Virus record (IMG/VR): IMGVR_UViG_3300042892_003674
Source of the DNA: a virus
Lineage: Duplodnaviria; Heunggongvirae; Uroviricota; Caudoviricetes
Length of the DNA stretch: 64,000 nucleotides
Direction: 5' to 3' (one strand)
Shown here: positions 33,791 through 55,439 of the stretch, piece after piece
Layout of the letters: each line of letters opens with the position of its first letter
Position numbering within the stretch: the stretch's first letter is position 1
Notes under the pieces: model-generated
The model's database searches: none
What the model was told of the DNA's origin: nothing
The model's input: the letters and a program-made list of their open reading frames with translations, nothing else
Made by a program: the position numbers and the translations under genes

Positions 33791-34176
33791 TGGCAGAATT
33801 GATAGACGTTTTTAACGCAATGATTAAAAGAGGTAATTGGGAAGCGATCACCGTTGAAGAAAAAGAAAAAAACTTTTTCATATTTAACAGGTACTTTTCG
33901 AAGAAGTACCCAGTACAAGCACAACTTTTAAACTTAAAAAACATAGATAAAGTAGTCGCTATGGAACTTTGGTATCAGTTTATGAAGAATGAACCTTATC
34001 CCAGTTATTTCTGGTCTAAAAGTGAGAAAAATGATAAACCGATACTTGCACCAAAGGATTACAAAATACTATTGGTGAGTTTAAAGATTAAACCAGATGA
34101 TTTAGATTACTTAATTGAGAAACATTTCGATTTCGTTAAAGAAGAATTATCATATCTAAAAAAAGTAAATACATAA
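33790..34176 (+). CDS. Probable sliding-clamp loader small subunit (T4 gp62-like)
   Basis: FIFNRYFS...A..LN...W..K pattern; sits next to rnh. Confidence 0.45.
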   Translation: MAELIDVFNAMIKRGNWEAITVEEKEKNFFIFNRYFSKKYPVQAQLLNLKNIDKVVAMELWYQFMKNEPYPSYFWSKSEKNDKPILAPKDYKILLVSLKIKPDDLDYLIEKHFDFVKEELSYLKKVNT

Positions 34177-34190
34177 AAATAAAATATAAT

Positions 34191-34745
34191 ATGAGTACAG
34201 AAGTTATAAATAAAACAGACATGAAGTGGTATGTAGTACGTACCCAGGGTAACCGTGAAAAATCAGTTGGAGAGCGTCTTACAAAAGAAGCTGAGAAAGG
34301 AGATCTTATAGGTAAAGTAGGACAAGTAATTGTACCACTTGAAAAGATTGTTTATCTTAAAGATGGTAAGAAAGTTCAAAAAGATAAAATTATGTTACCT
34401 GGTTATATCTTTATGGAAACGAATTCATTAGGAGAACTTAAATACTTTTTAAAAAGTGTTAAAGGTGTTGCTGGTTTCTTAACTGAAAGAAATGGTGATA
34501 TTAAATCTCTTACTGAAAATGAAGTAAATAGAATGATTGGTAGACATACAGAATCAATGAATAAAGAAACAACAATTACATTTATTGTTGGTGAAGAAGT
34601 TATGATCAACGAAGGACCATTTACTTCAATGAAAGCTACTATTGAGAAAATAGAAGACCAGAAAGTAACTCTAGCAGTTTCAATTTTCGGAAGAAAAACT
34701 CCATTGACTTTGGATTTACACCAGATTGATAAAATCCATGGATAA
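34191..34745 (+). CDS. nusG: Transcription termination/antitermination factor NusG
   Basis: WYVV...GNREK.V, LPGYIF, V.GFL, KOW GEEV.I.EGPF, VSIFGRKTP..L. Confidence 0.92.
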   Translation: MSTEVINKTDMKWYVVRTQGNREKSVGERLTKEAEKGDLIGKVGQVIVPLEKIVYLKDGKKVQKDKIMLPGYIFMETNSLGELKYFLKSVKGVAGFLTERNGDIKSLTENEVNRMIGRHTESMNKETTITFIVGEEVMINEGPFTSMKATIEKIEDQKVTLAVSIFGRKTPLTLDLHQIDKIHG

Positions 34746-34950
34746 TCGATCTTTAATTAGTAAGATAAACAAAGCAGCAAACGCAATTAGCAGATCTTCT
34801 ATAAGAGGTTCTGCTAATTATGTTGTTACATCAAAAGAAACTTATGAAGAGTTTCATAAGATATTAAGGAGACATAGAAGAGTTGAGAAAATTAAAAGAA
34901 TAATGAAATGGAAAAGAAAAAACAAGAAAGATACGATCAAGTATATCTAA
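34738..34950 (+). CDS. Small protein resembling a major-capsid fragment plus tag
   Basis: LISKINKAANAISRSSIRGSANYVVTS then RRVEKIKRIM. Confidence 0.55.
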   Translation: MDNRSLISKINKAANAISRSSIRGSANYVVTSKETYEEFHKILRRHRRVEKIKRIMKWKRKNKKDTIKYI

Positions 34951-35321
34951 ATATGGCTCATGAGTGGGCAACACTTTCACATTGTACAAGAAAACAAGTA
35001 GGTGCAATAATAGTTAAAAATGGTATGATAGTATCAGATGGTTACAATGGGACACCTACAGGGTTCGATAACTGTTGTGAGACGAATGATGAAACTAATT
35101 GGTTCGTTATTCACGCAGAAGCAAATGCTATCTTAAAATGTGCTAAACACGGTCAATCGTGTGATGGTGCTACATTATATCAAACACATTCTCCGTGTAG
35201 AGATTGTTCTAAATTAGTTCTTCAATCAGGAATTAAAAGATTAGTTTATCACGAAGATTATAAAGATATAACTGGTGTAGAGTTTTTAAGAGAAGCTGGA
35301 GTAGAAATAGTTAAAATATAA
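34908..35321 (+). CDS. dCMP deaminase
   Basis: GYNGTP, HAEANAI, SPCRDC. Confidence 0.92.
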   Translation: MEKKKQERYDQVYLNMAHEWATLSHCTRKQVGAIIVKNGMIVSDGYNGTPTGFDNCCETNDETNWFVIHAEANAILKCAKHGQSCDGATLYQTHSPCRDCSKLVLQSGIKRLVYHEDYKDITGVEFLREAGVEIVKI

Positions 35322-35785
35322 TGTATAGTAGAATTATAAACGGAATAAACCAAACTTATAAAGGTTCGTTAGTACCCATCGATAATTATTGTTTGGAAGG
35401 ATTAGTAGCCTTTGTAGAAAACTCACGATTACTTGGAGGAACTGGTATTACTGCTAAATTTGACTTATCATTATGGATGAATGATTTTCTTATTAAACAT
35501 GTTGATAAGATTTCTTATACTACTATAACACCAAGTTTTTCTATACAGAGTTTAGAAGATGGTAGACTAACTGAAAAAGTTATCGCAGTTAAAAGTATAA
35601 CATTCAATAGTGATGCTGAACTTGATGATTTCTTCGAAAATCAAATAGGTAAAAAACTAGTGGTATACACCATCGGTAAGTTTATTGATTTAAGTAATAT
35701 GGCAATTTCTTATGAGTTAAGATATGCTGATATAACTTTAAAAAGTGAACAAAGAGAAATTAAATTAAATAAAATACTACAATAA
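35321..35785 (+). CDS. Hypothetical protein with C-terminal tag (REIKLNKIL)
   Basis: 154 aa ORF. Confidence 0.65.
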   Translation: MYSRIINGINQTYKGSLVPIDNYCLEGLVAFVENSRLLGGTGITAKFDLSLWMNDFLIKHVDKISYTTITPSFSIQSLEDGRLTEKVIAVKSITFNSDAELDDFFENQIGKKLVVYTIGKFIDLSNMAISYELRYADITLKSEQREIKLNKILQ

Positions 35786-36252
35786 TGGAACTAATTACAA
35801 CAAGAGTATGTATGGCCTCACAGATAGGAGTACATGGAAATTTATTTGGTGGTGAAATGATGTCAATTTTAGACGAGTCCGCAGCAGTTTACTGCTGTCA
35901 GATTTGTGATACACCAAGAATGGTTACAAAGAAAATTGAAGAAGTAATTTTTCAAAGACCAGTTAAAACTGGTAACTTAATCAAAATTTATGGGAGTGTT
36001 GAAAGAATAGGTACTACATCTATTACAATAAATCTTGAAGCAAGAAAACATAATGTTTATACAGGAGTTCAAGATTTAGTTTGTTCAACTAAAATGGTAT
36101 TCGTTAGAATTGATGATGAAGGAGCACCAGTACCGATTTCAGAGAGAGTTAAGAAAAGATATGATGATAGAGTTAAATTGTTTGGTAGAGGATTACTAAC
36201 ACCAGAGGAAATGGTTATAGAGAGAAGTAAAAAGAAAAAAGAGGACAAATAG
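35785..36252 (+). CDS. Acyl-CoA thioesterase (hotdog fold, YciA-like)
   Basis: HGNLFGG.MM..LDE, F..PV..G, G.TS, VFV.IDD.G.P.PI. Confidence 0.85.
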   Translation: MELITTRVCMASQIGVHGNLFGGEMMSILDESAAVYCCQICDTPRMVTKKIEEVIFQRPVKTGNLIKIYGSVERIGTTSITINLEARKHNVYTGVQDLVCSTKMVFVRIDDEGAPVPISERVKKRYDDRVKLFGRGLLTPEEMVIERSKKKKEDK

Positions 36253-36261
36253 TCCTCTTTT
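36238..36261. terminator. Bidirectional terminator
   Basis: AAAGAGGAC-AAATA-GTCCTCTTT. Confidence 0.7.
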
Positions 36262-36262
36262 A

Positions 36263-36637
36263 TTATTTTGTTAAGTTTAGTAAACCTCTTTTTACTTGTG
36301 GTACACTAAGTTTGTATGATTTACCTTCAAACTCAGCTATGATTGGATAAGTTCTATTTCTCGTTTTGATGTCAGTGATAGTGAATGTTTTACCATTTAC
36401 TACAGTAAATCTACCGATAACATTACCATCAAATCCTAACATTTTAGAAGTATTATCATTTACAGTGATAACTCTTTCAGTGATAACTTTAGTTTTAACC
36501 GTCATTGTAGTGTTATACTTAGCACTATCATATCTACAAGAACCAAAAGAAATATCTACATTCTCTTCTCTTGCGATTTGAGCGATTGCTGCTTTGATTT
36601 TTGCTTGAACTGAATTGATTTTTGTTGAAGTTATCAT
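36263..36637 (-). CDS. Hypothetical early protein
   Basis: TATATTTG promoter at 36666-36673. Confidence 0.65.
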   Translation of the reverse strand: MITSTKINSVQAKIKAAIAQIAREENVDISFGSCRYDSAKYNTTMTVKTKVITERVITVNDNTSKMLGFDGNVIGRFTVVNGKTFTITDIKTRNRTYPIIAEFEGKSYKLSVPQVKRGLLNLTK

Positions 36638-36738: not shown

Positions 36739-37695
36739 ATGAACCTAAGGAATAAATTAGAAGATCAAATTAAACTAAATGGTGGTTGGGTAAATACACA
36801 TGCACATTTTGACAGAGCATTTTCATTAGATGAAGATTCTGTAAAGCATATTTACTCTGAATTACAAAAGAAGTGGTCAATTGTTGATACACTAAAACGA
36901 AGTTCCTCAGTTGAGGATATTTTTTTGCGTATGCAAAAGGCAACTGAACTAATGGTGTCTCAAGGATGTCAGGCATTTGGTAGTTTTATTGATGTTGATG
37001 AAGCTATTGAAGATAAGGCAATACTTGCGGCAGAAATGCTCAGAAGTAAATGGGATGATAAAATAAAGATGAAGTTTGTTAATCAAACACTTAAAGGTGT
37101 TATTGATAAGGATGCAAAATATTGGTTTGATAGATCACTTGATTTTGTAGATATTATTGGTGGTTTACCAGCAAAAGATTCTGGTAATGAAGAAAAACAT
37201 TTAGATATTATTTTACAAGCAGGTAAAAGATTAAATAAAAGAGTTCATGTTCATGTTGACCAATTCAATACTAGTCAAGAAAGTGAGACTGAATTACTTG
37301 CCAAGAAAACAATTCAATGGGGTATGGAAGGAATGGTAACTGCCATTCACTCAATATCAGTTGGTGCACATATTAAAGAAAAACGTCAAGACATTTATAG
37401 ATTAATGAAAGAAGCTAATTTAAGTGTTATCTCTTGTCCTATTGCTTGGATAGATCACCCAAGAACTGAGAGATTGGCACCAAGTCATAATTCTATAACA
37501 CCGGTAGATGAAATGATTGAATGGGGTATTAAAGTGGCAATCGGTACGGATAATATAAATGATGTTTATAAACCATTTGGTGATGGTGATATGTGGACAG
37601 AAATAAAGGTATTATTAGAAGCATGTAAGATTTACAATGTTGATGTTTTATCAGAGATTGCAACAAAAAATGGATTACAAGTTTTAGGACTATAA
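36739..37695 (+). CDS. Metal-dependent amidohydrolase (cytosine deaminase CodA-like)
   Basis: HAHFD, HVHVDQ, AIH, GTDN..D...PFG.GD. Confidence 0.8.
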   Translation: MNLRNKLEDQIKLNGGWVNTHAHFDRAFSLDEDSVKHIYSELQKKWSIVDTLKRSSSVEDIFLRMQKATELMVSQGCQAFGSFIDVDEAIEDKAILAAEMLRSKWDDKIKMKFVNQTLKGVIDKDAKYWFDRSLDFVDIIGGLPAKDSGNEEKHLDIILQAGKRLNKRVHVHVDQFNTSQESETELLAKKTIQWGMEGMVTAIHSISVGAHIKEKRQDIYRLMKEANLSVISCPIAWIDHPRTERLAPSHNSITPVDEMIEWGIKVAIGTDNINDVYKPFGDGDMWTEIKVLLEACKIYNVDVLSEIATKNGLQVLGL

Positions 37696-37709
37696 AAAAA
37701 AATTAAAAT

Positions 37710-39044
37710 ATGAAGCTTTGGACTAAAGGATTTGATACAAATAAAGAGATTGAGAGATTTACGGTAGGTAAAGATCGTGAAATGGATTTGATGATGGCTA
37801 AGTTTGATGTATTTGGATCATTGGCACATATAAAGATGTTGCAGAGTATTAATCTTCTAACTTTAGAAGAACATGATATTCTTAAAAAAGAACTTTTAAT
37901 CATCTTAGATGAGATTAAAAATAATAATTTTCAAATAGAAGAAAATATAGAAGATGTTCATTCACAAGTGGAGCTTCTTCTTACTAGAAGAGTAGGTGAG
38001 ATTGGTAAAAAGATTCATAGTGGTAGATCTAGAAATGACCAAGTTCTTTTAGATTTAAAATTATTTATTCGTGATAAAATAACAGATGTGGTAAAGATAA
38101 GTAATGAACTTTTCAATACACTTATTGAACTTAGTGAAGAGTATAAAGATGTTATGATGCCAGGTTATACTCATTATCAAGTTGCAATGCCATCTTCATT
38201 TGGACTTTGGTTTGCTTGTTGGGCAGAAAGTTTAGTAGATGATATAACACAACTTGAAGCGGCTTATAAAATTACTAATAAGAATCCATTAGGTTCTGCA
38301 GCTGGTTATGGTTCTTCTTTTCCATTAAATAGAACTTTAACAACTGAGTTATTAGGATTTGATACATTAAATTATAATGTTGTTTATGCTCAAATGGGTA
38401 GAGGTAAGGTAGAAAGAATTGTATCACAAGCTCTATCATCAATTGCACAAACTTTAAGTAAGATGTCACAGGATGTATGTTTGTTCACTAATCAAAATTA
38501 TGAATTTATGAAATTACCTAATGAGATTACAACTGGTTCAAGTATTATGCCACATAAGAAAAATCCAGATGTTTTTGAATTAGTAAGAGCGAAGTGTAAT
38601 AAATTAAGTTCACTATCTAATGAAATAACACTAATAACAACTAATTTGTCATCTGGATATCACAGAGATTTACAAATGATTAAAGAAAGTTTTATGCCAG
38701 CATTTGATGATTTAATTGATTGTTTACAAATAAGTAATTACTCACTTAAACAAATCTCAGTAAATAAGGAAATACTTAATGATGATAGATATAAATATTT
38801 ATTCTCAGTTGAAGAGGTGAACAATTTAGTTCTACAAGGTAAAAGTTTTAGAGATGCTTATCGTGAAGTTGGTGATAACATAGAGTCTGGTAAATATGAT
38901 TTTGATAATAAGACAACTAATCATACCCATGAAGGAAGTATTGGGAACTTATGTAATGAACAAATAAGAAATCAAATGCAACTAATAATTGAGAAGTTTA
39001 ATTTTGATAAGGTTGATAAAGCTATAGAAAGTTTATGTAAATAA
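37710..39044 (+). CDS. argH: Argininosuccinate lyase
   Basis: HSGRSRNDQV, PGYTHYQ.AMP, PLGSAAGYG, TGSSIMPHKKNPD, GYHRDLQ, FRDAY. Confidence 0.95.
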   Translation: MKLWTKGFDTNKEIERFTVGKDREMDLMMAKFDVFGSLAHIKMLQSINLLTLEEHDILKKELLIILDEIKNNNFQIEENIEDVHSQVELLLTRRVGEIGKKIHSGRSRNDQVLLDLKLFIRDKITDVVKISNELFNTLIELSEEYKDVMMPGYTHYQVAMPSSFGLWFACWAESLVDDITQLEAAYKITNKNPLGSAAGYGSSFPLNRTLTTELLGFDTLNYNVVYAQMGRGKVERIVSQALSSIAQTLSKMSQDVCLFTNQNYEFMKLPNEITTGSSIMPHKKNPDVFELVRAKCNKLSSLSNEITLITTNLSSGYHRDLQMIKESFMPAFDDLIDCLQISNYSLKQISVNKEILNDDRYKYLFSVEEVNNLVLQGKSFRDAYREVGDNIESGKYDFDNKTTNHTHEGSIGNLCNEQIRNQMQLIIEKFNFDKVDKAIESLCK

Positions 39045-39070
39045 AAAAATCCACCTTAGGGTGGATTTTT
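39043..39070. terminator. Bidirectional terminator
   Basis: AAAAATCCACC-TTA-GGTGGATTTTT. Confidence 0.8.
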
Positions 39071-39074
39071 AATT

Positions 39075-39443
39075 CTATTCATTTAATATCTGATTTAATT
39101 TTTCTTCACGTTCATCTTGTAAGGTATATAACATAACATCTTTATGTTCAACCCAGTTATTTATATAACTATTTTTAGTTCGTACTCTATATTCAAGTTT
39201 ATAACTACTTTTAATACTTGGTATTATGTATCTTTCATTTATATCTATGATAAATCCAATATGATAAAAATCTAACTTAATATCATCAATCTCTAATACA
39301 AACTTAACTTTTACACGATCACCCTTTGAGAACTTTAAATTGTTGTCTGTATTTAAAGACTGCGAGGTCTTTTGCTTTGGCTTCAATCTCTGTATCAAAG
39401 TCAAGACCAAATGTTTTAATTTCTTCATAAATATAATCTGCAT
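39075..39443 (-). CDS. Hypothetical protein with C-terminal tag (REEKLNQIL); start uncertain
   Basis: KFSKGDRVKV...; overlaps the 3' end of uvsE. Confidence 0.55.
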   Translation of the reverse strand: MQIIFMKKLKHLVLTLIQRLKPKQKTSQSLNTDNNLKFSKGDRVKVKFVLEIDDIKLDFYHIGFIIDINERYIIPSIKSSYKLEYRVRTKNSYINNWVEHKDVMLYTLQDEREEKLNQILNE

Positions 39444-40242
39444 GTGCAGTGTTTTTACCTGATGTGTCTTCTAATGTTTTTGGTGAACTCATATGAGTTA
39501 GAACTCTTGTTTTCCAAGTAGAGTGTGCTAGTCTCAATGCTTCTTCCATAGTTTGGTCTTGTGGACCATAGTTATAATGATGTTGGTCAAACGTAATTGG
39601 AATACCGATAACTTGATAAACCCAATCATATAACATTTTAACAGAGTATTGGTTTTGACCATCATCGTTCTCAACAACTAATCTTTTCTTACAAGACTCT
39701 GATAAGTTTTCAAACTCTTTACAAAATCTTTCTGCAGCCAACTCTCTTGTTGGTTGAGTAGTATTGATATGAATGTTGATTGGATAGAATGTAGTTTGGT
39801 CTAATTCCATCAAATCCATAAGTTCTGCGTGTTTATTTAACTCTTTAATAGTTTTCTCTACAACTGATGGATTCTCACTTGCCAGTACATTGAAGGGACC
39901 AGGATGGTACGATACACGTATACCGTGGTCTTTTACTTTCTTACCGATAAGTTTCAAGTAAGTATGAATGGCAGGGAACTTTGGTAGATCACTGAACTCA
40001 TATTCTGACATCCAAGGAAAGGAGTCACTAGACATTCGATAAATGTAAATGTTATTTTTAATATTATACTCTAATAATTTTAAAGTATCTTTTAGATTTT
40101 CAATAACTAACTCTGATACATAAGGAAGTCCTTTTGCATCAAATGTTCTACGAACCATGCCTCGGTTCACTGTTACGAATTCTTTCTTTTTCTTACCTGT
40201 ATTTACTCCCATGGAGATACAACAATAGCCTATATTCTTCAT
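39319..40242 (-). CDS. uvsE: UV-damage endonuclease
   Basis: IGYCC, YRMSS..FP, HPG.F..L.S, INIH, ENDD, FD.HH, AHADY, EAKAKD; TATCTTTG at 40247-40254. Confidence 0.92.
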   Translation of the reverse strand: MKNIGYCCISMGVNTGKKKKEFVTVNRGMVRRTFDAKGLPYVSELVIENLKDTLKLLEYNIKNNIYIYRMSSDSFPWMSEYEFSDLPKFPAIHTYLKLIGKKVKDHGIRVSYHPGPFNVLASENPSVVEKTIKELNKHAELMDLMELDQTTFYPINIHINTTQPTRELAAERFCKEFENLSESCKKRLVVENDDGQNQYSVKMLYDWVYQVIGIPITFDQHHYNYGPQDQTMEEALRLAHSTWKTRVLTHMSSPKTLEDTSGKNTAHADYIYEEIKTFGLDFDTEIEAKAKDLAVFKYRQQFKVLKG

Positions 40243-40387
40243 TTTACAAAGATATAATTTTTTTTAATTTTTTACTATAAAAAATCCTTTTATTTTACTA
40301 GGATTCTATTTTTATTTAGTAGAAAGTTGACATTTTTTTATTTTTTTATTTAATATATAACTATGAAAAAAAAATATCAACCAACCA

Positions 40388-42304
40388 ATGAAAAAAATCT
40401 TAACCTTTATGGTCGGATTATTCTTGTTATGTAGTTTTTCTACATTTGCACAGATTTGTCCTACCGCTCCTGGAACAGGAGTTTATGTTATGTTTGACAG
40501 TACTTACCCAGTCGGGACAATTACTGCAGGAGAAACTCACGTTAGAATGTGTTATGCGAACACTACTTCTACAAAAGTTTCTGGGGTTCAGTTTAGAGTA
40601 TGGTATGACAAAGTAGCTTTCGCAGGTGGAGCTCCAGTCGTAACTTCTTTAAACACAACATTCCCACAAAGTTTACAATATGTTACCAACACTTCTGAAG
40701 GTAGCATAACAATTACAATCGCATACACTGGTAGTTCTTCTACCTTTACTATTCCTGATGGAGCATTATTTGATTTGAAGTTACTTCATACTTCTAACTT
40801 CCAAAACTTTTCAGGAACAAACCCAATTGCTAATATGGCAGTAACTGGTGTAACACCATTTCCAAATGGTGCATCAGATATAAATGGTTTGGATACTAAC
40901 TTAGTAGTTCATAACTACGGTGGGGTTTTACAACAACAAATGTTTGCTTACTCTGGTAACTTCAAAACAGTTACAGGAGCCGGTGCAAAAAACATCCCAG
41001 TTGTATTACAGAAGAAAGCAACTACTGCAACAACTTGGACAGATGTAACAACATTTACTACTGATGTCAATGGTGCTTTCTCATTTAATGAGCCAATTGA
41101 CGTATCTTACTATGATGTAAGAATACACGTTCAAGGTGATGCACTTGACTTTGGTAACATCGTAACGACTGCAGATGCACAAAAAGCAAATGATATTATT
41201 TTAGGCACAACTACTCCAACAGGATTTGATTTCTATTCTGCTGACGTAAATGGTTCTAATACAATTACTATTGCAGACGTTTATTCAATCTTTGGTAGAA
41301 TAGCTGGTAGATTTACTGCTTGGCCAAATAACGTAAAAGATGTTTTATTCTTTAACGAAACTGAATACAATACAATCAATACTTCACCAACAAACTTGAG
41401 ATCTACAATTCCTGGTGTAACTGTATTTGATAAAGTTATTTTACCAGCTGATCCACATACATTAGTAAGTTTCTATGTATTAGGTGCTGGAGATACTAAC
41501 AATACAGGTTTCCAAATGGCTCGTATGATTCCAATTGAAATTGCTAACCCTGCAAATGCTCCTTATCATATTATTGATAAAACTATCGAATTCGATAATG
41601 TAAATCAAGAAATTGAATTAAACTTACCTACCTTAAATAACATTCAAGAAGGTAACTTAATCAATGTTCCTGTAAAAGTACTTTCTGCTAATTACCTATT
41701 AGGTTCTATGCAGTTTGGAGTATGGTATGATCAATCCCTTTTAGAATTTAGAGGGATTGAGAGTACAACATCTGTTTCAAGATGGATGTCTTATACTAAC
41801 CCAGAAGAAAACATTATTGACTGGGGTGGGTATGATGCTTTCGGAGGATTAGACTTAGTTAAAAATAATGATATAGCATTCACATTACAATTTGTTGCAA
41901 AACAACCACAATCTAACTGGGGAACTTCTCCATTAGTAGTTACTCGTAAAGCGGCAGGTGATGCACAATCTCGTGATTTCAATATTAGACCAACTGATGG
42001 TTTAGTAGTAATCAATAGAATAAATAATAGTTCTTTAGTAAGTACAAATGAAATGATTGTTTACCCTAATCCAACCGATGGTGCAGTAACAGTTACTTTC
42101 ACAGTATCAAATGGAACTAGAGCTAACTTAGGATTCTATGACATCAATGGTAGAAAATGTGTTGATGTTATAACTGAGAATTTTCCAAAAGGGAAATATA
42201 GCTATACAGTAGATTTAGGTGAATTACCAACTGGAACATATATTGCAGTTTTAGCACCTGATTCTCAACAACATTTAACTGCGAAAAAAGTAGTTAAACA
42301 ATAA
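40388..42304 (+). CDS. Secreted cohesin/dockerin-containing protein with T9SS type-A C-terminal sorting domain
   Basis: Signal peptide, two cohesin-like domains (QF.VWYD), dockerin-like ADVNGSNTITIAD, CTD VYPNPT...G.Y......KKVVKQ. Confidence 0.8.
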   Translation: MKKILTFMVGLFLLCSFSTFAQICPTAPGTGVYVMFDSTYPVGTITAGETHVRMCYANTTSTKVSGVQFRVWYDKVAFAGGAPVVTSLNTTFPQSLQYVTNTSEGSITITIAYTGSSSTFTIPDGALFDLKLLHTSNFQNFSGTNPIANMAVTGVTPFPNGASDINGLDTNLVVHNYGGVLQQQMFAYSGNFKTVTGAGAKNIPVVLQKKATTATTWTDVTTFTTDVNGAFSFNEPIDVSYYDVRIHVQGDALDFGNIVTTADAQKANDIILGTTTPTGFDFYSADVNGSNTITIADVYSIFGRIAGRFTAWPNNVKDVLFFNETEYNTINTSPTNLRSTIPGVTVFDKVILPADPHTLVSFYVLGAGDTNNTGFQMARMIPIEIANPANAPYHIIDKTIEFDNVNQEIELNLPTLNNIQEGNLINVPVKVLSANYLLGSMQFGVWYDQSLLEFRGIESTTSVSRWMSYTNPEENIIDWGGYDAFGGLDLVKNNDIAFTLQFVAKQPQSNWGTSPLVVTRKAAGDAQSRDFNIRPTDGLVVINRINNSSLVSTNEMIVYPNPTDGAVTVTFTVSNGTRANLGFYDINGRKCVDVITENFPKGKYSYTVDLGELPTGTYIAVLAPDSQQHLTAKKVVKQ

Positions 42305-48329: not shown

Positions 48330-50219
48330 TTACTTGGTTTCTTGATCAGAAACTTCCTCAAAGCTTACATCTTCAACACTTTCCGAACCTTCATTAGTTT
48401 GTTCAGGCTCATTTTGAGATTGTTCGTACAATTTAGTACTGATTGCATGCCAAGAATCACTTAGTTTTTTAGAACTTTCGTCGATTGCTTCAACATTTTT
48501 ATCAGCATAAGCCTTTTTCAATTCATCTAGGTCTATACCTAAAGCTCTCTTGTCTTCCTCTGTTAGTTTTTCATCAAACTCTTTCATTTGTTTTTCTGTT
48601 TGGAAGATTAGGTTATCTGCACCGTTAAGTTTATCAACTTTTTCTCTTTCAATTCTATCAGATTCTGCATTAGCTTCAGCTTCTGCTTTCATATTCTCAA
48701 TTTCTTCTTTTGTTAATTGAGAACCACCTTCAATTCGGATTTTGTTTTCTTTACCACTTGCTTTATCTTTCGCTGTTACAGAAAGTATGCCGTTGGCATC
48801 GATATCCAAAATTACCTCTACTTGTGGAATACCTCTTGGTGCGGGTGGAATACCATCTAAATGGAATCTACCTAAAGAACGATTGTCTTTTGCCATAGGT
48901 CTTTCACCTTGAAGACAGTGGATCTCTACAGAAGATTGATTATCTGCTGCAGTAGAGAATGTTTCACTTTTTCTTGTAGGAATAGTAGTGTTTGCATCAA
49001 TCAATTTAGTAAACACACCACCCATTGTTTCAATACCAAGTGAAAGAGGGGTTACATCTAATAGTAATACGTCAGTAATACCACCAGTCAACACTGCACC
49101 TTGAATAGCCGCTCCTAATGCAACAACTTCATCTGGATTTACAGATTTGTTTGCTTTCTTACCAATGAATGATTCGATAGCTTCTTGAATAGATGGGATT
49201 CTTGTAGAACCACCAACCAAGATAACTTCATCGATATCAGCTGGTTTTAATTTAGCACTTTTAAGAGCAGATTTAGCACAATCAATTGCTCTTTTAACTA
49301 ATGAACTAGTCATTTGGTCAAATTTTGCTTTAGTTAATTGCTTTACAAAGTGCAAAGGTTGATTGTCTCTTGATGTGATGTAAGGTAGATTAATATCAGT
49401 TGTTGTAGAAGAAGATAATTCAATCTTAGCTTTTTCTGCAGCTTCTTTTAATCTTTGTAATGCCATAGCATCTTTTGATAAATCCACATCATTTTCAGAT
49501 TTGAATTCTTGAACCATCCAAGTGATGATTTCGTTATCAAAGTCGTCACCACCTAGGTGAGTATCACCATCAGTAGATTTTACTTCAAAAACACCGTCTC
49601 CAATTTCTAATACAGATACGTCATGAGTTCCCCCACCACAATCAAATACTAAAATCTTGGATTCCGTATTTTTCTTATCTAAACCATATGCTAAAGCTGC
49701 AGCAGTTGGTTCGTTGATAATTCTTTCAACTTTCAAACCAGCGATTTCACCAGCTTCGATTGTTGCGGTTCTTTCTGCATCACCAAAGTAAGCAGGAACA
49801 GTGATAACTGCTCTCGTGATTTCACATCCTAAATAATCTTCAGCAGTTTTTTTCATTTTTTGTAAAATCATTGCAGAGATTTCTTGTGGAGTATATACTC
49901 TGTCTCCAATTCTAACACCAGGTACATTAGAGCCAGTTTTTTCTACTTTATAAGGAGTTCTTTTAATTTCATCTGAACAAGATGAGAAGTCTTTCCCTAT
50001 AAATCTTTTGATTGAGTAAACAGTTTGTTCTGGGTTAGTAACTGCTTGTCTTTTTGCAGGATCGCCCACTTTTCTATCGTCTTTAGTGAATCCTACAATA
50101 GAAGGTGTTGTTCTTTTACCTTCCGAGTTTGAAATAACGATTGGTTCACCACCTTCAACAACTGCTACACAGCTATTAGTGGTTCCAAGATCGATTCCGA
50201 TGATTACATCTTTTGCCAT
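48330..50219 (-). CDS. dnaK: Chaperone DnaK (Hsp70)
   Basis: [42 protein letters not shown]. Confidence 0.97.
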
Positions 50220-50254
50220 AATTTAATTAATTTATTTTTTTGTAATTAGTAATA

Positions 50255-50319
50255 TTCAATTTCTGTGCCAAAGTTATTTTACTGACATTTATACATAATA
50301 TTATGACATTATGTCATAA
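50255..50319 (-). promoter_or_regulatory. Sigma54-like promoter (TTGGCACAGAAATTGAA) plus upstream palindrome TTATGACA-TTA-TGTCATAA
   Basis: -24/-12 spacing matches TGGCAC-N5-TTG; palindrome at 50301-50319; half-site at 50282-50289. Confidence 0.6.
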
Positions 50320-50386
50320 ATAATCTTTACACTAAATATATATTGTAAAATTTAAAAAAGTTTAACAAAATTTAATATATACTTTT

Positions 50387-50812
50387 ATGTTAAGTAAAAT
50401 AAACTCATATTCACAATTTATAAATGAAAGTTTGGTAGTGCCAAGACAACCTATTGATCAAATGGTAGATACCTTTATTCCTGAAGTATTTGATAAGTTT
50501 GATATAGATTATTGCAAACCAGAAGATGAAGAAAAAATGCAATTTGCTCAAGAAACGTATTGGACTTTTATATTTGAGGATAGAGACGGTAAAGGTGGTT
50601 TATTAGAAAACCCATATGAACAATTTCTTGAAATATGTTGGTTAGATAGTGAGTTATATACAAATGTAATGAATGAACTGTTAGCAGTAAAGAGTATGGT
50701 TGAGAGAAGAACTGGATATAGTTATAAGTTAAAACATAGTACCAGTTGGGGTTATGGGTTTATAACTATAGAAACTAGAGATATATACGGTAATTTTTTA
50801 AGACCGGAATAA
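50387..50812 (+). CDS. Hypothetical protein with ...YSQFINES N-terminal motif
   Basis: Preceded by TTAATATATA. Confidence 0.65.
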   Translation: MLSKINSYSQFINESLVVPRQPIDQMVDTFIPEVFDKFDIDYCKPEDEEKMQFAQETYWTFIFEDRDGKGGLLENPYEQFLEICWLDSELYTNVMNELLAVKSMVERRTGYSYKLKHSTSWGYGFITIETRDIYGNFLRPE

Positions 50813-50836
50813 AAAACCCACCAATCGGTGGGTTTT
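50811..50836. terminator. Bidirectional terminator
   Basis: AAAACCCACC-AATC-GGTGGGTTTT. Confidence 0.8.
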
Positions 50837-52094
50837 AGTCTTCTACATCTTCTTCAACGTCAATGAAGAATAAAGTTGGATCAATTTTAGATAACCACTC
50901 TCTTGCTATTAACAATTTGTTAGTATCTCTTGATAACCAAGCTTTAGCCATTTCAAATGGTTCAGAAGTTTTGATCATATTTTCATATCTTTCATATTCT
51001 TCAAAGATTTCTAAGATTTCTTCTCTTGATAGTAATGACATTTCATCTACAGTCGCCATTTTCATTACAAACGAGAAGTTCTCTTCTTTACCTCTATAGT
51101 TGATTGCATAATCTTTTCTTGAACCTACAGTTAAGTAGAAATCATATGATCTTTTTATTTCTTCAACTTTTTTAGATAAAGCTCTTTTAACTATTAAGAT
51201 AATTTTTTCAATTCTAGCGTGAGCTTCTACTTCATCTTCTGGGATTTGTGCAACAACATCGTCAATTTCATCAGTTAAGATATAGTTGATTATGATGTTC
51301 TCTCTGTAAATATCCTCAGTCAATATACCGTGTCTTTTGAAGTACCAATCAGTTTTGATTTTCATCAATAAACCATTAGTAAATTCAATTATCCATCCTT
51401 CTTTATCTTCTGTATAAGAAGCCATTTCAACCAATTCGTCTAAAGTATAACCTGACTCAGAAGGAGTCACTCTAACGTCACCGATTACGTCTAAATAGTC
51501 ATTTAAGTCTAATAGTTCACCGGTAACATTATCTCTCAATCTTAATAAAATTAAGTCTTCTTTAGCATATCTTAAAACAATTTTGTTTGATGGTGCAACA
51601 TACTCAAAGATTGCAGTTATATCGTTATCAAAAGTCCAATCAACAAATCTTTTTACAGATGTGTTTGATTTGTAAACTCTCATGATACCTTCTGCTTGAT
51701 CAGTGATAACTGACATTTTTGATTTACCAAAAACTGAACCGTCTGGTAATTTGATAAATGATGCTACAGATCCATCTTCTTTGTTGTAGATAGATTTGAT
51801 TTTAAAGTCTTTAACTTCTGAATACATAGTATCTGGTACTTGGTTCAAGTTGAAGAATTTCTCTAATAGTAAGTATCTTTTAAACAAAGATCCATCAGAG
51901 TTGAACACATAAGTGATCCCTCTCATTTCTTTTGCACCTGTGTCATTGAAGTCTGCCCAAGAAGCTAATCTATAGTTGAAAGTAGATACAGCATACCCAC
52001 CAACAATAGATTTTGATTCGTAAAATGGAGAGTCCACTTTATTAACCAAAGCTAATGCTTCATCGTAAGTTGGTATGTTGTATATTGTTTTCAT
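50835..52094 (-). CDS. RNA ligase 1 (T4 RnlA-like)
   Basis: E.RG, KFFN, motif I KEDGS, FEYV.P.N.IV, EGW, MKIKT.WY..H. Confidence 0.88.
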   Translation of the reverse strand: MKTIYNIPTYDEALALVNKVDSPFYESKSIVGGYAVSTFNYRLASWADFNDTGAKEMRGITYVFNSDGSLFKRYLLLEKFFNLNQVPDTMYSEVKDFKIKSIYNKEDGSVASFIKLPDGSVFGKSKMSVITDQAEGIMRVYKSNTSVKRFVDWTFDNDITAIFEYVAPSNKIVLRYAKEDLILLRLRDNVTGELLDLNDYLDVIGDVRVTPSESGYTLDELVEMASYTEDKEGWIIEFTNGLLMKIKTDWYFKRHGILTEDIYRENIIINYILTDEIDDVVAQIPEDEVEAHARIEKIILIVKRALSKKVEEIKRSYDFYLTVGSRKDYAINYRGKEENFSFVMKMATVDEMSLLSREEILEIFEEYERYENMIKTSEPFEMAKAWLSRDTNKLLIAREWLSKIDPTLFFIDVEEDVED

Positions 52095-52095
52095 T

Positions 52096-52308
52096 TTATT
52101 TAAGTTTTGCTTTTACTTCTTCGTATCTTCGTTTAATTTCTAATAGTAATTCATCCCACTCCATCTTGACAACTTCTAATCCATCCCAAGAAAATTTCTC
52201 GTCATGAATCATATTAAGTGCTTCTCTTATCTTAGTGTGATTATTAGATGTTAGACCATCACTAAGAAGGTTTATTGCGGATACTGCGATGTTATAGTTG
52301 TTATTCAT
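52096..52308 (-). CDS. Hypothetical protein
   Basis: 70 aa ORF in operon. Confidence 0.6.
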   Translation of the reverse strand: MNNNYNIAVSAINLLSDGLTSNNHTKIREALNMIHDEKFSWDGLEVVKMEWDELLLEIKRRYEEVKAKLK

Positions 52309-52312
52309 ATTT

Positions 52313-52504
52313 TTAGTCTTTTAATAAGTTTTCTGCAACAGAGTATTGTTTATCACTTAAAACTTTTACTTGTCTTCCTTTAAAATCTTCTTTGTTTAGT
52401 TTTGTATTTGTTTTTAATTGCTTCTGTAATGATAGTAAAAATGAATTAGTACCATCGTAAGATTTAATCTTCTTATTTAATTCTACTTTTTCGTTTATTT
52501 CCAT
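52313..52504 (-). CDS. Hypothetical protein
   Basis: 63 aa; TATCTTTG promoter at 52524-52531. Confidence 0.6.
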   Translation of the reverse strand: MEINEKVELNKKIKSYDGTNSFLLSLQKQLKTNTKLNKEDFKGRQVKVLSDKQYSVAENLLKD

Positions 52505-52583
52505 GTTTTAAATTATATTTTGACAAAGATAAGAAAAACTTCTTACTAAATACATATATAATAATAAAATTACTAAAAATAAT

Positions 52584-53081
52584 ATGAAAATAACAATACG
52601 CCCTGAAGAGATCGTGAAAAGATGTCTGTGGGACACTTATGTTTATTATGTGTTACAGTGCACTGAGAAAGAAGCAGAACGAATACTTAAAGAAAATGAA
52701 GAAATAGAAGTATCTGAAAGAGATGCTTTAGTTATGGGTTTACTTAAAATAATTGAAACTATAAATTTAATTCACAAGTTTAATACTTATGTTACTGAGT
52801 TTTTAACTAATAAGTCTATTGGTAATCCTAAGAAAGATGGTACATTATTGATTAGAAAGAAAAACTTTGACTATGCAGTTGATAAGTTTTTAGATAAATT
52901 TCCTGATTATTGGGAACCTAGTGCGGGATGGGTAAATTCACTAAAAGAACTTGTTGAATACATAGATGAAATGAAAATAAGTTTAGAAAAACTTGAAGTG
53001 ATTGAACTTGAAGACAAAAATGTTATATATGAGTTTTATAACTCAAGTGCTGTAAAAAAACTATTAAAATTTAATTATTAA
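52584..53081 (+). CDS. Hypothetical protein
   Basis: 165 aa ORF. Confidence 0.65.
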   Translation: MKITIRPEEIVKRCLWDTYVYYVLQCTEKEAERILKENEEIEVSERDALVMGLLKIIETINLIHKFNTYVTEFLTNKSIGNPKKDGTLLIRKKNFDYAVDKFLDKFPDYWEPSAGWVNSLKELVEYIDEMKISLEKLEVIELEDKNVIYEFYNSSAVKKLLKFNY

Positions 53082-53087
53082 TAAATC

Positions 53088-53540
53088 ATGGAAAAAGAAG
53101 AACAAAAAGAAATTTTAGAAGAAACTGTTGTTGAAGTAACAGTAGAGCAAAAACTACAAGAGTCCGAGGACAAATACTTACGTCTTTATGCAGATTTTGA
53201 AAACTATAAAAGAAGAGTTCAGAAGGATAAAGAAGAATTAGTATTAAACACAAAAACAAAAATGTTATCATCTGTTATTGATATGGATAATGACGTTACA
53301 TTAGCATTGAAATCAATGGATAAAGTTGATAAAGGAGTTTTACTAATTGCACAAAAATTAGAAACTTTCTTAAAGTCACAAGGTATTGAACCAATTCAAA
53401 CCGAAACCTATGACGATGAGTTACACGAGGTTATTAGTGTAACTGAATCAGGTGCCAAAAAAGTAATAGACGTAGTATCTAAAGGTTATACATTGAATGG
53501 TAAACCTTTCAGATATCCAAAAGTTGTTTTAGGAAAATAG
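53088..53540 (+). CDS. grpE: Nucleotide exchange factor GrpE
   Basis: YLRLYADFENYKRR, D..LHE.I, V..KGY.LNG...R..KVV. Confidence 0.9.
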   Translation: MEKEEQKEILEETVVEVTVEQKLQESEDKYLRLYADFENYKRRVQKDKEELVLNTKTKMLSSVIDMDNDVTLALKSMDKVDKGVLLIAQKLETFLKSQGIEPIQTETYDDELHEVISVTESGAKKVIDVVSKGYTLNGKPFRYPKVVLGK

Positions 53541-54061
53541 TGAATACTAAACCTTCCATATTAGAGATAAATCAAAACCCATCGTATAGAGAGATAATTC
53601 TTGATACGTTGTGTCAAGGTATTAAAAATACATCTGAGTTTAGAGATTTATTAGAATATGTAATTGATAATAAACTTTACTTATTTGAAGGTTTTGAGTT
53701 CAAAGGAACTTTATATGATGGTGATGATGATCTATTAGATCTGATTCTACCATCAATTAGAAGAGTGTGGGGTAAAGTTTATATTACACCACCTTCTATG
53801 TTAAGGGAAAAAAGATTACAATTATTTGAATTATTATTTGATATAGATGAATTTTTAGATTATTTGGTTTTAATACTACCAAAGTCTTCAAATAAGTTAG
53901 AAATATTTAATAATTTAGATAGAACACAAGAAACATTACAACTTATAGTTGATAATTATATTGCAGGTTTATTTCATCGAGCTTATAATTCAGAAACAAT
54001 TGATGAAGATATGAAAGTTGCAACAAGAGATAAAAATTTAAAGAAACTAATAAATGATTAA
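53540..54061 (+). CDS. Hypothetical protein (capsid N-terminus-like segment) with C-terminal tag (RDKNLKKLI)
   Basis: GTG start; ILPSIRRVWGKV. Confidence 0.6.
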   Translation: MNTKPSILEINQNPSYREIILDTLCQGIKNTSEFRDLLEYVIDNKLYLFEGFEFKGTLYDGDDDLLDLILPSIRRVWGKVYITPPSMLREKRLQLFELLFDIDEFLDYLVLILPKSSNKLEIFNNLDRTQETLQLIVDNYIAGLFHRAYNSETIDEDMKVATRDKNLKKLIND

Positions 54062-54368
54062 TTGGTATGTACAAATATCAGAAGAAGCACCAATTGGGTT
54101 TAACTCTGATATTTACTTAGGTAATGTTATAGATACCGCTACTCCATTTATGGATTACTTCTGTAAAAGATTATCAGAAATAGAAAATTGGATGATAGAA
54201 GATGCGGAGAAAATATTTAAAGATATAATTGATGAAATGCCAATTATGTCTTCAATTATAAATAATACTGAATTTATTATAAAGTATAATAGATGGGTAA
54301 GTATTAGACTGACGGATACAACCAAGCAAATATATAGAGATATAAAATTAGAAAAAATACTAACATAA
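54054..54368 (+). CDS. Hypothetical protein with C-terminal tag (RDIKLEKIL)
   Basis: 104 aa ORF. Confidence 0.65.
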   Translation: MINWYVQISEEAPIGFNSDIYLGNVIDTATPFMDYFCKRLSEIENWMIEDAEKIFKDIIDEMPIMSSIINNTEFIIKYNRWVSIRLTDTTKQIYRDIKLEKILT

Positions 54369-54371
54369 ATT

Positions 54372-55439
54372 ATGGCAAAAGATTATTATGACGTACTAGG
54401 TGTTGATAGAAATGCAACAGAAGATGAGATTAAGAAATCTTATCGTAAAATGGCAATGAAATGGCATCCTGATCGAAATCCGGATAACCCAGAAGCAGAA
54501 GTAAAATTTAAAGAAGCTGCAGAAGCTTATGATGTACTTTCTACTCCAGATAAGAAATCAAATTATGATAGATTTGGATCGGCAGATGGTGGAGGTAATC
54601 CATTCGGTGGTAATCCATTCGGTGGCGGTCGAGGTCACGGTTTTAATATGGATGATATTTTCAGTCAATTTGGAGATATATTTGGAGGTGGATTTGGTGG
54701 TCAAAGACAACAACAAAGACAAGCGAAAGGTTCTGATTTAAGAATAAAAGTATCTTTAACTATTGAAGAAATAATCAATGGTGTTACAAAGAAATTAAAA
54801 TATAAAAGAAACGAACCTTGTTCTCCTTGTAATGGTAAAGGTGGTTCTGATGTAAGAACATGTATTCCCTGTAATGGTTCTGGACATAGAACTGTAATAC
54901 AGAATACACCATTTGGGCAAATTAGAAATTCATCTACTTGTCCTGATTGTAATGGTACTGGTAATCAAATAACAAATAAGTGTAATGTTTGTCACGGACA
55001 AGCAACTTTACCAAAAGAACAAACAGTTGATGTTGAAATACCTAAAGGTGTTGGAAACGGAATGCAAATGACAATGGCAGGTTTTGGTAATCATGTTTTG
55101 AATGGTGTTCCTGGTGATTTATATATTGTCTTTGATGAAATTAGAGAAATGTATTTCAGAAGAGAAGGTGGTAATATTATAACAGATGTAGAAATTTCAG
55201 TTATTGATGCGATAATTGGTGCTAATGTAACAGTTAAGTCTCCACATGGTGATGTAATAGTTGCTATTGAACCAGGTACAGAACACGGTAAAATTATAAG
55301 AATAAATGGTAAAGGTATTCCAGATATTCACGAGGGTATGGGAAGTTTAATAATAAATGTTAAAATTAGAATACCAAAGTCTATAAATCTTGAGCAAAAA
55401 GCAATGTTGGAAAAACTAAAAAATGCTGGTAATTTTTAA
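54372..55439 (+). CDS. dnaJ: Chaperone DnaJ
   Basis: J domain HPD, G/F region, four CxxCxGxG repeats. Confidence 0.96.

Follow-up and report, generated by a model that had tools for sequence, protein, structure and literature searches.

A tagged mini-gene with homology to the Gp23 capsid protein in the slot behind nusG of Mahaphage-type phages

The locus and the capsid homology of its product

The window, by which we mean the whole 64,000-nucleotide stretch of Caudoviricetes DNA analyzed here (IMG/VR record IMGVR_UViG_3300042892_003674), contains a mini-gene at positions 34738 to 34950 of the plus strand. Its translation is 70 amino acids long and matches exactly the protein quoted in the first-pass annotation, confirming that the reading frame is real. 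The mini-gene start overlaps the stop of nusG (34191 to 34745) by 8 nucleotides, and its final 43 nucleotides overlap dcd (34908 to 35321), which encodes dCMP deaminase; both neighbors were identified by Pfam and lie on the same strand. Further downstream is a gene for a 154-amino-acid protein with no assigned family (35321 to 35785, plus strand), which carries a nonbasic subtype of the tag described below and is variably present in the slot. The annotation placed the mini-gene in a “replication operon.” The neighbors that it named are there, with nusG as the upstream anchor of the slot, but the term is loose, and the post-nusG slot is occupied by variable tagged small genes.

The mini-protein can be divided into four parts. 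Residues 4 to 35 (34747 to 34842) form a Gp23-type helix-loop-strand segment, equivalent to positions 222 to 253 of the Pfam model, residues 351 to 382 of T4 gp23, and approximately residues 412 to 454 of the major capsid protein of the clade. Residues 36 to 47 (34843 to 34878) form a helical linker under weak constraint. They are followed by the shared C-terminal tag R-x-x-K-I-x-x-I-(L/M) (residues 48 to 56; 34879 to 34905), an amphipathic helix of the basic subtype that here reads R48-x-x-K51-I52-x-x-I55-M56. The last 14 residues (57 to 70; 34906 to 34950) are the 5′ end of dcd translated in another frame. The usual and ancestral form of the mini-gene is 57 to 60 amino acids long, stopping just past the tag; the 70-residue form exists because dcd directly follows and its start offers no stop, and the read-through tail is probably incidental. 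The capsid fragment had been described as fused to the C-terminal tag, and the tag is indeed present and its motif enriched (see below), although a 12-residue linker separates the two and, in this copy, the tag is not terminal.

As a single sequence, residues 4 to 35 match PF07068 with an E value of 1.1e-4 and 22.2 bits, slightly below the cut-off of 24.4 bits, and the protein matches PHROG 138, major head protein, with an E value of 4.5e-5. At the family level, 23 of 26 members match the Gp23 Pfam model, with a best E value of 5.5e-9. When the family profile was compared with PDB sequences, the four top matches were all T4 gp23 (residues 351 to 390; E = 0.006), and the profile also retrieved full-length Gp23 proteins among long database proteins. 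The likeness to a conserved gp23 segment that the first-pass annotation pointed out is borne out by profile alignment and exceeds chance. From HK97 topology, we place the segment where the axial (A) domain begins, and the order of elements in a low-confidence model of the clade capsid agrees.

Homology is limited to 32 of the about 520 to 570 residues of a Gp23 major capsid protein (PF07068, PHROG 138; T4 gp23, PDB 5VF3 and 6UZC), whereas a full HK97 fold takes about 350 residues or more; the spine helix, the P domain, and the remaining A domain are missing. In contrast to capsid genes, the mini-gene lies outside the head module, between nusG and dcd, and is fused to an unrelated tag, while complete relatives keep an intact capsid gene elsewhere. 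In LR756502, for example, the capsid gene is at 227 to 229 kb and the mini-gene orthologue at 502 kb.

AlphaFold predicts the mini-protein as a helix (residues 3 to 23), a loop (24 to 32), and a second helix (33 to 68), with a mean pLDDT of 84 and a pTM of 0.46. In this isolated helix-loop-helix, the capsid strand is unformed, as there is no sheet with which it could pair. The model of the clade capsid, usable for element order only (mean pLDDT, 49) and with T4 gp23 as its best Foldseek matches, shows the same segment as helix-loop-strand-helix directly after the long spine helix. The mini-protein model had no match in the PDB by Foldseek, the ESM Atlas gave no usable match, and PADLOC gave none. 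A predicted complex of the mini-protein with residues 300 to 571 of the clade capsid scored 0.01, which is uninformative either way. As for expression, a promoter scan showed no excess over shuffled sequences (16 matches versus 19.9), and contigs from two metatranscriptome runs of two studies contained 72% and 47% of the words of 33800 to 36300, a region-level figure in which strand and DNA carry-over are not separated.

Conservation and descent of the capsid piece

The mini-gene is conserved in related phages. It has more than 50 relatives, mostly located just after nusG in Mahaphage-type phages (approximately 640 kb): 34 close homologues (61 to 91% identity) and 17 distant ones (35 to 62%), all of 56 to 70 amino acids. 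One of the close homologues, P0010, is encoded on a 612-kb contig. The position after nusG, either direct or past one inserted gene, holds in the 18 loci examined plus L163; a few distant members are found elsewhere, one of them (P0053) in an array of tagged small genes. This array (L161:195-6044) comprises about 20 small genes, most of them ending in the tag and several of them paralogous. The named sources of homologous loci are mostly freshwater or wastewater metagenomes. The closest complete records, LR745206 (635 kb) and LR756502 (642 kb), share the gene order around nusG with the window, and their topoisomerase is 79% identical to the window's. Yet the mini-gene itself is absent from LR745206, and cassettes have been gained and lost among relatives. 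No tagged capsid mini-gene was found in Lak-B5, PTm1, immuto, MaF61, or MA9V-2.

Two observations concern the loci themselves. One mini-gene, at L009:6001-6213, is a mosaic between strains, with ends of the window type and a middle of the type found at L002:2542-2715, a pattern that points to recombination within the mini-gene. In addition, some relatives have a DUF723-type endonuclease-like gene inserted upstream of nusG on the opposite strand (L001:3042-3968, L003:189-1112, and L013:4205-5110).

We estimated selection by pairwise NG86 counting among ten close strains, whose pairs are nonindependent and include some recombination. The dN/dS ratio was 0.56 for codons 1 to 55 (confidence interval [CI], 0.35 to 0.85) and 0.30 for the capsid core, codons 9 to 32 (bootstrap CI, 0.11 to 0.59; P of a ratio of at least 1, 0.0005), versus 0.85, with a wide interval, for the linker. 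Thus, the capsid part is itself constrained. The mini-gene as a whole evolves faster than its neighbors, for which the same comparison gave 0.22 (nusG) and 0.08 (dcd). Variable sites are biased to third codon positions (13 of 23). Across 25 divergent members, G24 and I17 are found in all, L6 in 23, and N27 in 22. The conserved positions map to the hydrophobic face of the helix, and the nonhelical turn (G24, S25, N27, and the aromatic residue at 28) is conserved as strongly as the helix. The reading frame is under purifying selection, which is concentrated on the capsid part.

This evidence leaves little room for the weakest explanation of the locus, that it is debris, whether a capsid-gene remnant that has decayed or is not translated or a reading frame that arose by chance. 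In its favor are the single-sequence Pfam score below the cut-off and the incidental tail. Against it, more than 50 relatives, some only about 35% identical, keep the frame open and share its start, length, and tag; together with a dN/dS ratio below 1, the third-position bias, and the lack of any DNA-level trace of recent duplication, this largely refutes debris and makes it very improbable.

Where the capsid piece came from was evaluated against the capsid of the clade, represented by two complete genomes and 170 sequences at 69% identity or more, as a stand-in for the window's own capsid gene, which lies outside the window. LR745206 and LR756502 each carry one full Gp23 gene. Of the 32 homologous positions, 22 do not vary among the 170 distinct capsid proteins of the clade, and the window protein matches 7 of these 22. 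The clade-invariant residues T8, H12, T19, E20, G21, P25, Q27, G33, G34, and L35 are present in none of 25 mini-gene members. Instead, the family has R23, S25, N27, and S32, as in canonical T4-type capsids and unlike the clade's own. The start of the helix (R4, L6, K9, and I10) does resemble the own-clade capsid, with 8 of 15 identities in the helix half, and the LR756502 orthologue is 42% identical to residues 421 to 451 of its own capsid.

In a 29-taxon capsid tree, the best placement of the mini-gene is on the deep branch that separates the Mahaphage/Lak/PTm1 group from the canonical T4-type group, a placement that relies on 32 columns and long branches and so carries a risk of long-branch artifact. 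All own-clade placements are rejected by the AU (about 0.02) and KH (about 0.002) tests and only marginally rejected by the SH test (0.03 to 0.06). The rank of the top-scoring foreign capsids is biased, since they were chosen by similarity to the family. By blastn, no DNA-level similarity indicating a recent duplication of the capsid gene was found. The 7 of 22 invariants, the tree tests, and the blastn result all speak against a piece duplicated recently from the capsid gene of the clade. What these comparisons firmly show is that the capsid piece, either old or foreign in origin, has been retained close to the consensus of the superfamily. The 32 columns and long branches do not tell an ancient own-lineage duplicate apart from a piece captured out of a lineage that has not been sampled.

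The tag and the other tagged pieces

The motif R-x-x-K-(I/L)-x-x-(I/L/V)-hydrophobic stands at the C terminus of 11 of the 95 window open reading frames, against 0.1 expected (P of about 1e-19), while matches at internal positions of these frames number one in 17,531. The pattern was defined after viewing the sequences, with the genome of LR756502 as an independent check; there, it is found on 89 of 1005 open reading frames. Overall, about 9 to 12% of proteins carry the tag, most of them without a recognizable core-protein body. The mini-protein belongs to this set, having such a helix near its C terminus, and R48, K51, and I52 are invariant among 36 close family members. At the tag arginine, 76 of 84 sequences have R and 2 have K. 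This near-invariance makes a specific reader of the tag more likely than a generic membrane helix, a candidate that we do not favor for this reason. In LR756502, tags with a net charge of +4 or more are carried by 15 proteins with a median length of 59 amino acids, compared with 110 proteins with a median length of 116; the tag of the mini-gene family is of the basic subtype, which sits on the shortest proteins.

The internal proteins of T4 offer a parallel for such an address, as their capsid targeting sequence is a short shared N-terminal peptide, later cleaved, that brings unrelated proteins to one place. The tag of the mini-gene differs in being C-terminal. A leader of the N-terminal kind is found separately in the window, where about 20 open reading frames (between 2490 and 62737) begin with a shared M-K-(Y/H)-(L/I)-K-x-F-E type motif that also looks like an address but differs from the C-terminal tag. 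Two tagged small proteins of LR756502 (320919 to 321134 and 381760 to 382026) match that phage's own 707-amino-acid Clp-like protein (440544 to 442667) over a stretch of 24 to 30 residues that is UVR-like by eye (E values of 1e-4 and 0.006), which may connect the tag to protein quality control.

Other tagged proteins also carry pieces of core phage proteins. In many relatives, a second tagged mini-gene, whose body resembles the C-terminal part of the portal protein, lies directly downstream of the capsid mini-gene (L002:2712-2900, L003:2050-2229, L006:5724-5897, L013:6455-6649, L019:17519-17674, and L163:3312-3482). Alignment of the portal body gave shuffle P values of 0.005 to 0.01 for five of eight, and another matched Pfam Portal_T4 with an E value of 0.019. 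This gene is missing in the window, plausibly through tag-to-tag recombination, as suggested by the junction sequence. In LR745206, the slot has a portal piece instead of the capsid module.

Tagged capsid pieces were also seen outside the mini-gene family, in related contigs and in LR745206 and LR756502. They correspond to Pfam positions 102 to 163, 164 to 196, and 302 to 356, covering the spine helix, the preceding strand, and C-terminal strands, for four capsid segments overall (L018:1453-1653, L027:1468-1656, L026:1462-1674, L025:1573-1758, L023:1429-1656 on the minus strand, and L179:17261-17446). Two other LR745206 capsid-fragment types reject the own clade just as the mini-gene does, which makes three of four types in total, and two of the four place best on the foreign P0055 lineage; for the spine-helix type, own-clade placement is not rejected (AU, 0.32). 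Good alignments to the phage's own proteins were obtained for one LR756502 capsid piece and for the portal pieces. We do not favor a scenario in which the capsid pieces jointly rebuild a miniature HK97 fold, as the set of tagged pieces differs between complete genomes.

A 49-amino-acid tagged protein (L192:3495-3644; LR756502 523495 to 523644) carries motif A of family B DNA polymerase (PolB), with E values of 1.3e-4 (Pfam) and 3.2e-4 (PHROG), and has only a weak likeness to motif A of the phage's own PolB (score, 29). The piece would necessarily be foreign if the clade had no PolB, an idea that we rejected: the clade has a split PolB and no DnaE. The two PolB genes lie more than 100 kb apart in LR756502 (120483 to 121907 and 253958 to 255391), and the same split is found in LR745206, LR756504, and LR756501; no DnaE-type polymerase was found. 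Among other short tagged proteins, likeness to tail tube or sheath seen by eye had no profile confirmation. A tagged window protein of 173 amino acids with a GTG start, encoded between grpE and dnaJ (53540 to 54061), had been suspected of likeness to the capsid N terminus, but its best score of 44 did not exceed the shuffled mean of 44.

Capsid-like sequences without the strict tag also occur. Short proteins at L204:1417-1722 (LR756501) and L205:1501-1932 (LR756508) contain the same capsid segment, and one of this pair is in a phage with a canonical T4-type capsid. Larger degenerate paralogues of 250 amino acids (L024:1426-2178, minus strand; LR756502) and 479 amino acids (L206:1192-2631, minus strand; LR756501) begin with an unrelated N-terminal part that is followed by the C-terminal half of Gp23, and the smaller of them has an internal tag-like helix.

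Candidate roles of the mini-protein

That the mini-gene encodes a functional, tagged, capsid-derived mini-protein is, in our assessment, very likely, and this protein probably acts as a capsid mimic. Of the roles that such a mimic could have, we tentatively rank first, at less than even odds, the decoy function raised by the first-pass annotation, in which the capsid part would serve as bait occupying a host capsid-sensing factor. According to this model, an old, sequence-derived Gp23 element (helix, glycine turn, and short strand) would be carried on a basic amphipathic helix. The mini-gene would be translated by coupling to nusG, the tag would dock on one common partner, and the capsid part would fill the site of a host factor that recognizes T4-type capsids without activating it, as DSAD1 does for DSR2.

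Three considerations place bait first. The identified cargo classes (capsid, portal, and PolB motif A) are known triggers: all three proteins are reported to trigger Avs (PMC13581612), and CapRel (PMC9712102) and a Thoeris system (PMC12578639) respond to capsid as well. Moreover, the mini-gene appears to behave like an accessory conflict gene, evolving fast and belonging to cassettes that come and go. Finally, a nonactivating mimic has a precedent in DSAD1 of phage SPbeta, a small mimic of a virion protein that fills the sensor pocket of DSR2 without activating it (PMC10973363). For DSAD1, which imitates the tail tube, the target has been demonstrated, whereas the mini-protein has clear Gp23 sequence descent, a shared tag, and a putative target; they have in common a likeness to a phage protein that triggers immunity, as capsid is a documented trigger. 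To our knowledge, DSAD1 is not a sequence-derived piece of the tail tube and has no shared tag.

The annotation had also pointed to Lit as a host defense that senses capsid. The Gol peptide read by Lit and EF-Tu shows that 29 residues of gp23 can be recognized by host machinery (PMC3014915), yet the precedent is not directly applicable: Gol is located within the first quarter of gp23, acts within the full protein, and activates the defense (PMC3014915), while the mini-gene piece corresponds to residues 351 to 382 and is a separate gene. The mini-gene product is a partial Gp23 homologue and a putative antidefense protein; it is neither a capsid protein nor a Gol peptide. Avs7, Avs8, Avs10, and Dsr1 (PMC13581612), CapRel SJ46 (PMC9712102), and a staphylococcal Thoeris system (PMC12578639) are candidate targets, all of them host proteins that read folded capsid, whereas the mini-protein is a phage fragment. 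Avs7 contacts the A domain (PMC13581612), where the segment probably belongs. In the literature searched, we found no report of fragment decoys against capsid sensors and, within its incomplete coverage, no published account of the tag or of capsid fragments that carry it. The gene design is new as far as this search goes; if the mini-protein is a decoy, its mode of action has a precedent in DSAD1.

Several results weaken the bait reading. Avs7 grips the whole HK97 capsid fold over 3,700 square angstroms (PMC13581612), a contact that a 32-residue piece cannot reproduce. Bait should resemble the phage's own capsid, yet the mini-protein lacks the own-clade invariants and the tree tests reject a position in that clade. 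On its own, it is modeled as a helix-loop-helix in which the capsid strand does not form, and most tagged proteins are not recognizable fragments of core proteins. The conserved positions lie on a hydrophobic helix face, which could equally well pack against the core of a protein or be presented to a sensor.

The foreign-looking residues and the hydrophobic face are better explained if the mini-protein is a weapon against coinfecting canonical T4-type phages, although some pieces are own-like. The piece would enter, or swap with, the folding capsid of the competitor and spoil its heads; the resident capsid would be immune through divergence at this segment, and the tag would direct the protein to an assembly site, a protease, or a chaperone. 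Consistent with this, the loop-strand half (R23, S25, N27, and S32) agrees with canonical T4-type capsids rather than with those of the clade, most capsid-fragment types reject the own clade, and the tagged PolB piece is a poor match to the resident PolB. Huge phages have been reported to use CRISPR against their competitors (PMC7162821), and Flavobacterium is a host of canonical T4-type phages. Yet the helix half is the most own-clade-like part, the well-aligning LR756502 capsid piece and portal pieces point to the phage itself, and the deep-branch placement, with its biased foreign ranks and artifact-prone 32 columns, fits an ancient own-lineage duplicate equally well. We regard such a weapon as the main rival of the bait reading, though as unlikely in itself.

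It is somewhat more unlikely that the capsid piece is exapted cargo, the tag being the working part, an address to one hub, and the piece surviving as a stable helical hairpin with a role unrelated to capsids. In that case, whatever short helical segment came to lie ahead of the tag could be retained. The abundance of the tag on bodies mostly unrelated to core proteins would fit, as would the presence of distant members in arrays of tagged small genes such as L161 and the two-helix model, in which self-packing could explain the conserved hydrophobic face. The conservation of the turn alongside the helix argues otherwise. Also, the pieces come repeatedly from the best-conserved core motifs, the capsid having been sampled four times, which random capture does not predict.

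The absence of the clade-invariant residues weakens not only a decoy of the self capsid but also a modulator of the phage's own head assembly, which would bind the own capsid protein and act in size control, timing, or competition for a chaperone. The clade-like helix half and the 42% identity of the LR756502 orthologue would suit this role, and the domain to which we assign the segment makes capsomer-center contacts in T4 (PMC9546572), the assignment being inferred. Against it, some 270 kb separate the mini-gene from the head genes in LR756502, and the complete relative LR745206 has no copy. We consider such a modulator improbable.

Returning to bait and weapon, the tagged pieces could be seen together. 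With not quite an even chance in our estimate, the huge phages of Bacteroidota maintain a library of modular mini-proteins, each joining a signature motif of a core protein to one docking helix, that would soak up host pattern-recognition receptors or jam the assembly of rival T4-type phages; the mini-gene would be its capsid A-domain module. Bacterial sensors for capsid, portal, and polymerase have been well documented, and escape from them is considered difficult because the folds that they read are conserved. If the library exists, a tagged set of conserved motifs would be a general counterstrategy or a phage-versus-phage weapon, present in some of the largest phages known with its tag on about a tenth of the proteome, and each module would mark an epitope that matters. 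Proteins of about 57 residues are cheap to synthesize and suited to existing sensor-trigger toxicity assays.

Genomes in the size class of LR745206 and LR756502 have been assigned to the Mahaphage clade, for which Bacteroidetes hosts have been predicted (PMC7162821); this agrees with the presence of a Por-secretion-tail protein in the region orthologous to the window. Host-like genes lie in the window at 36739 to 42304 and 48330 to 55439. Besides the Por-secretion-tail protein, they include an amidohydrolase, an argininosuccinate-lyase-like protein, and a UvdE endonuclease, all assigned by Pfam on orthologues, and dnaK, grpE, and dnaJ, which were identified by sequence appearance.
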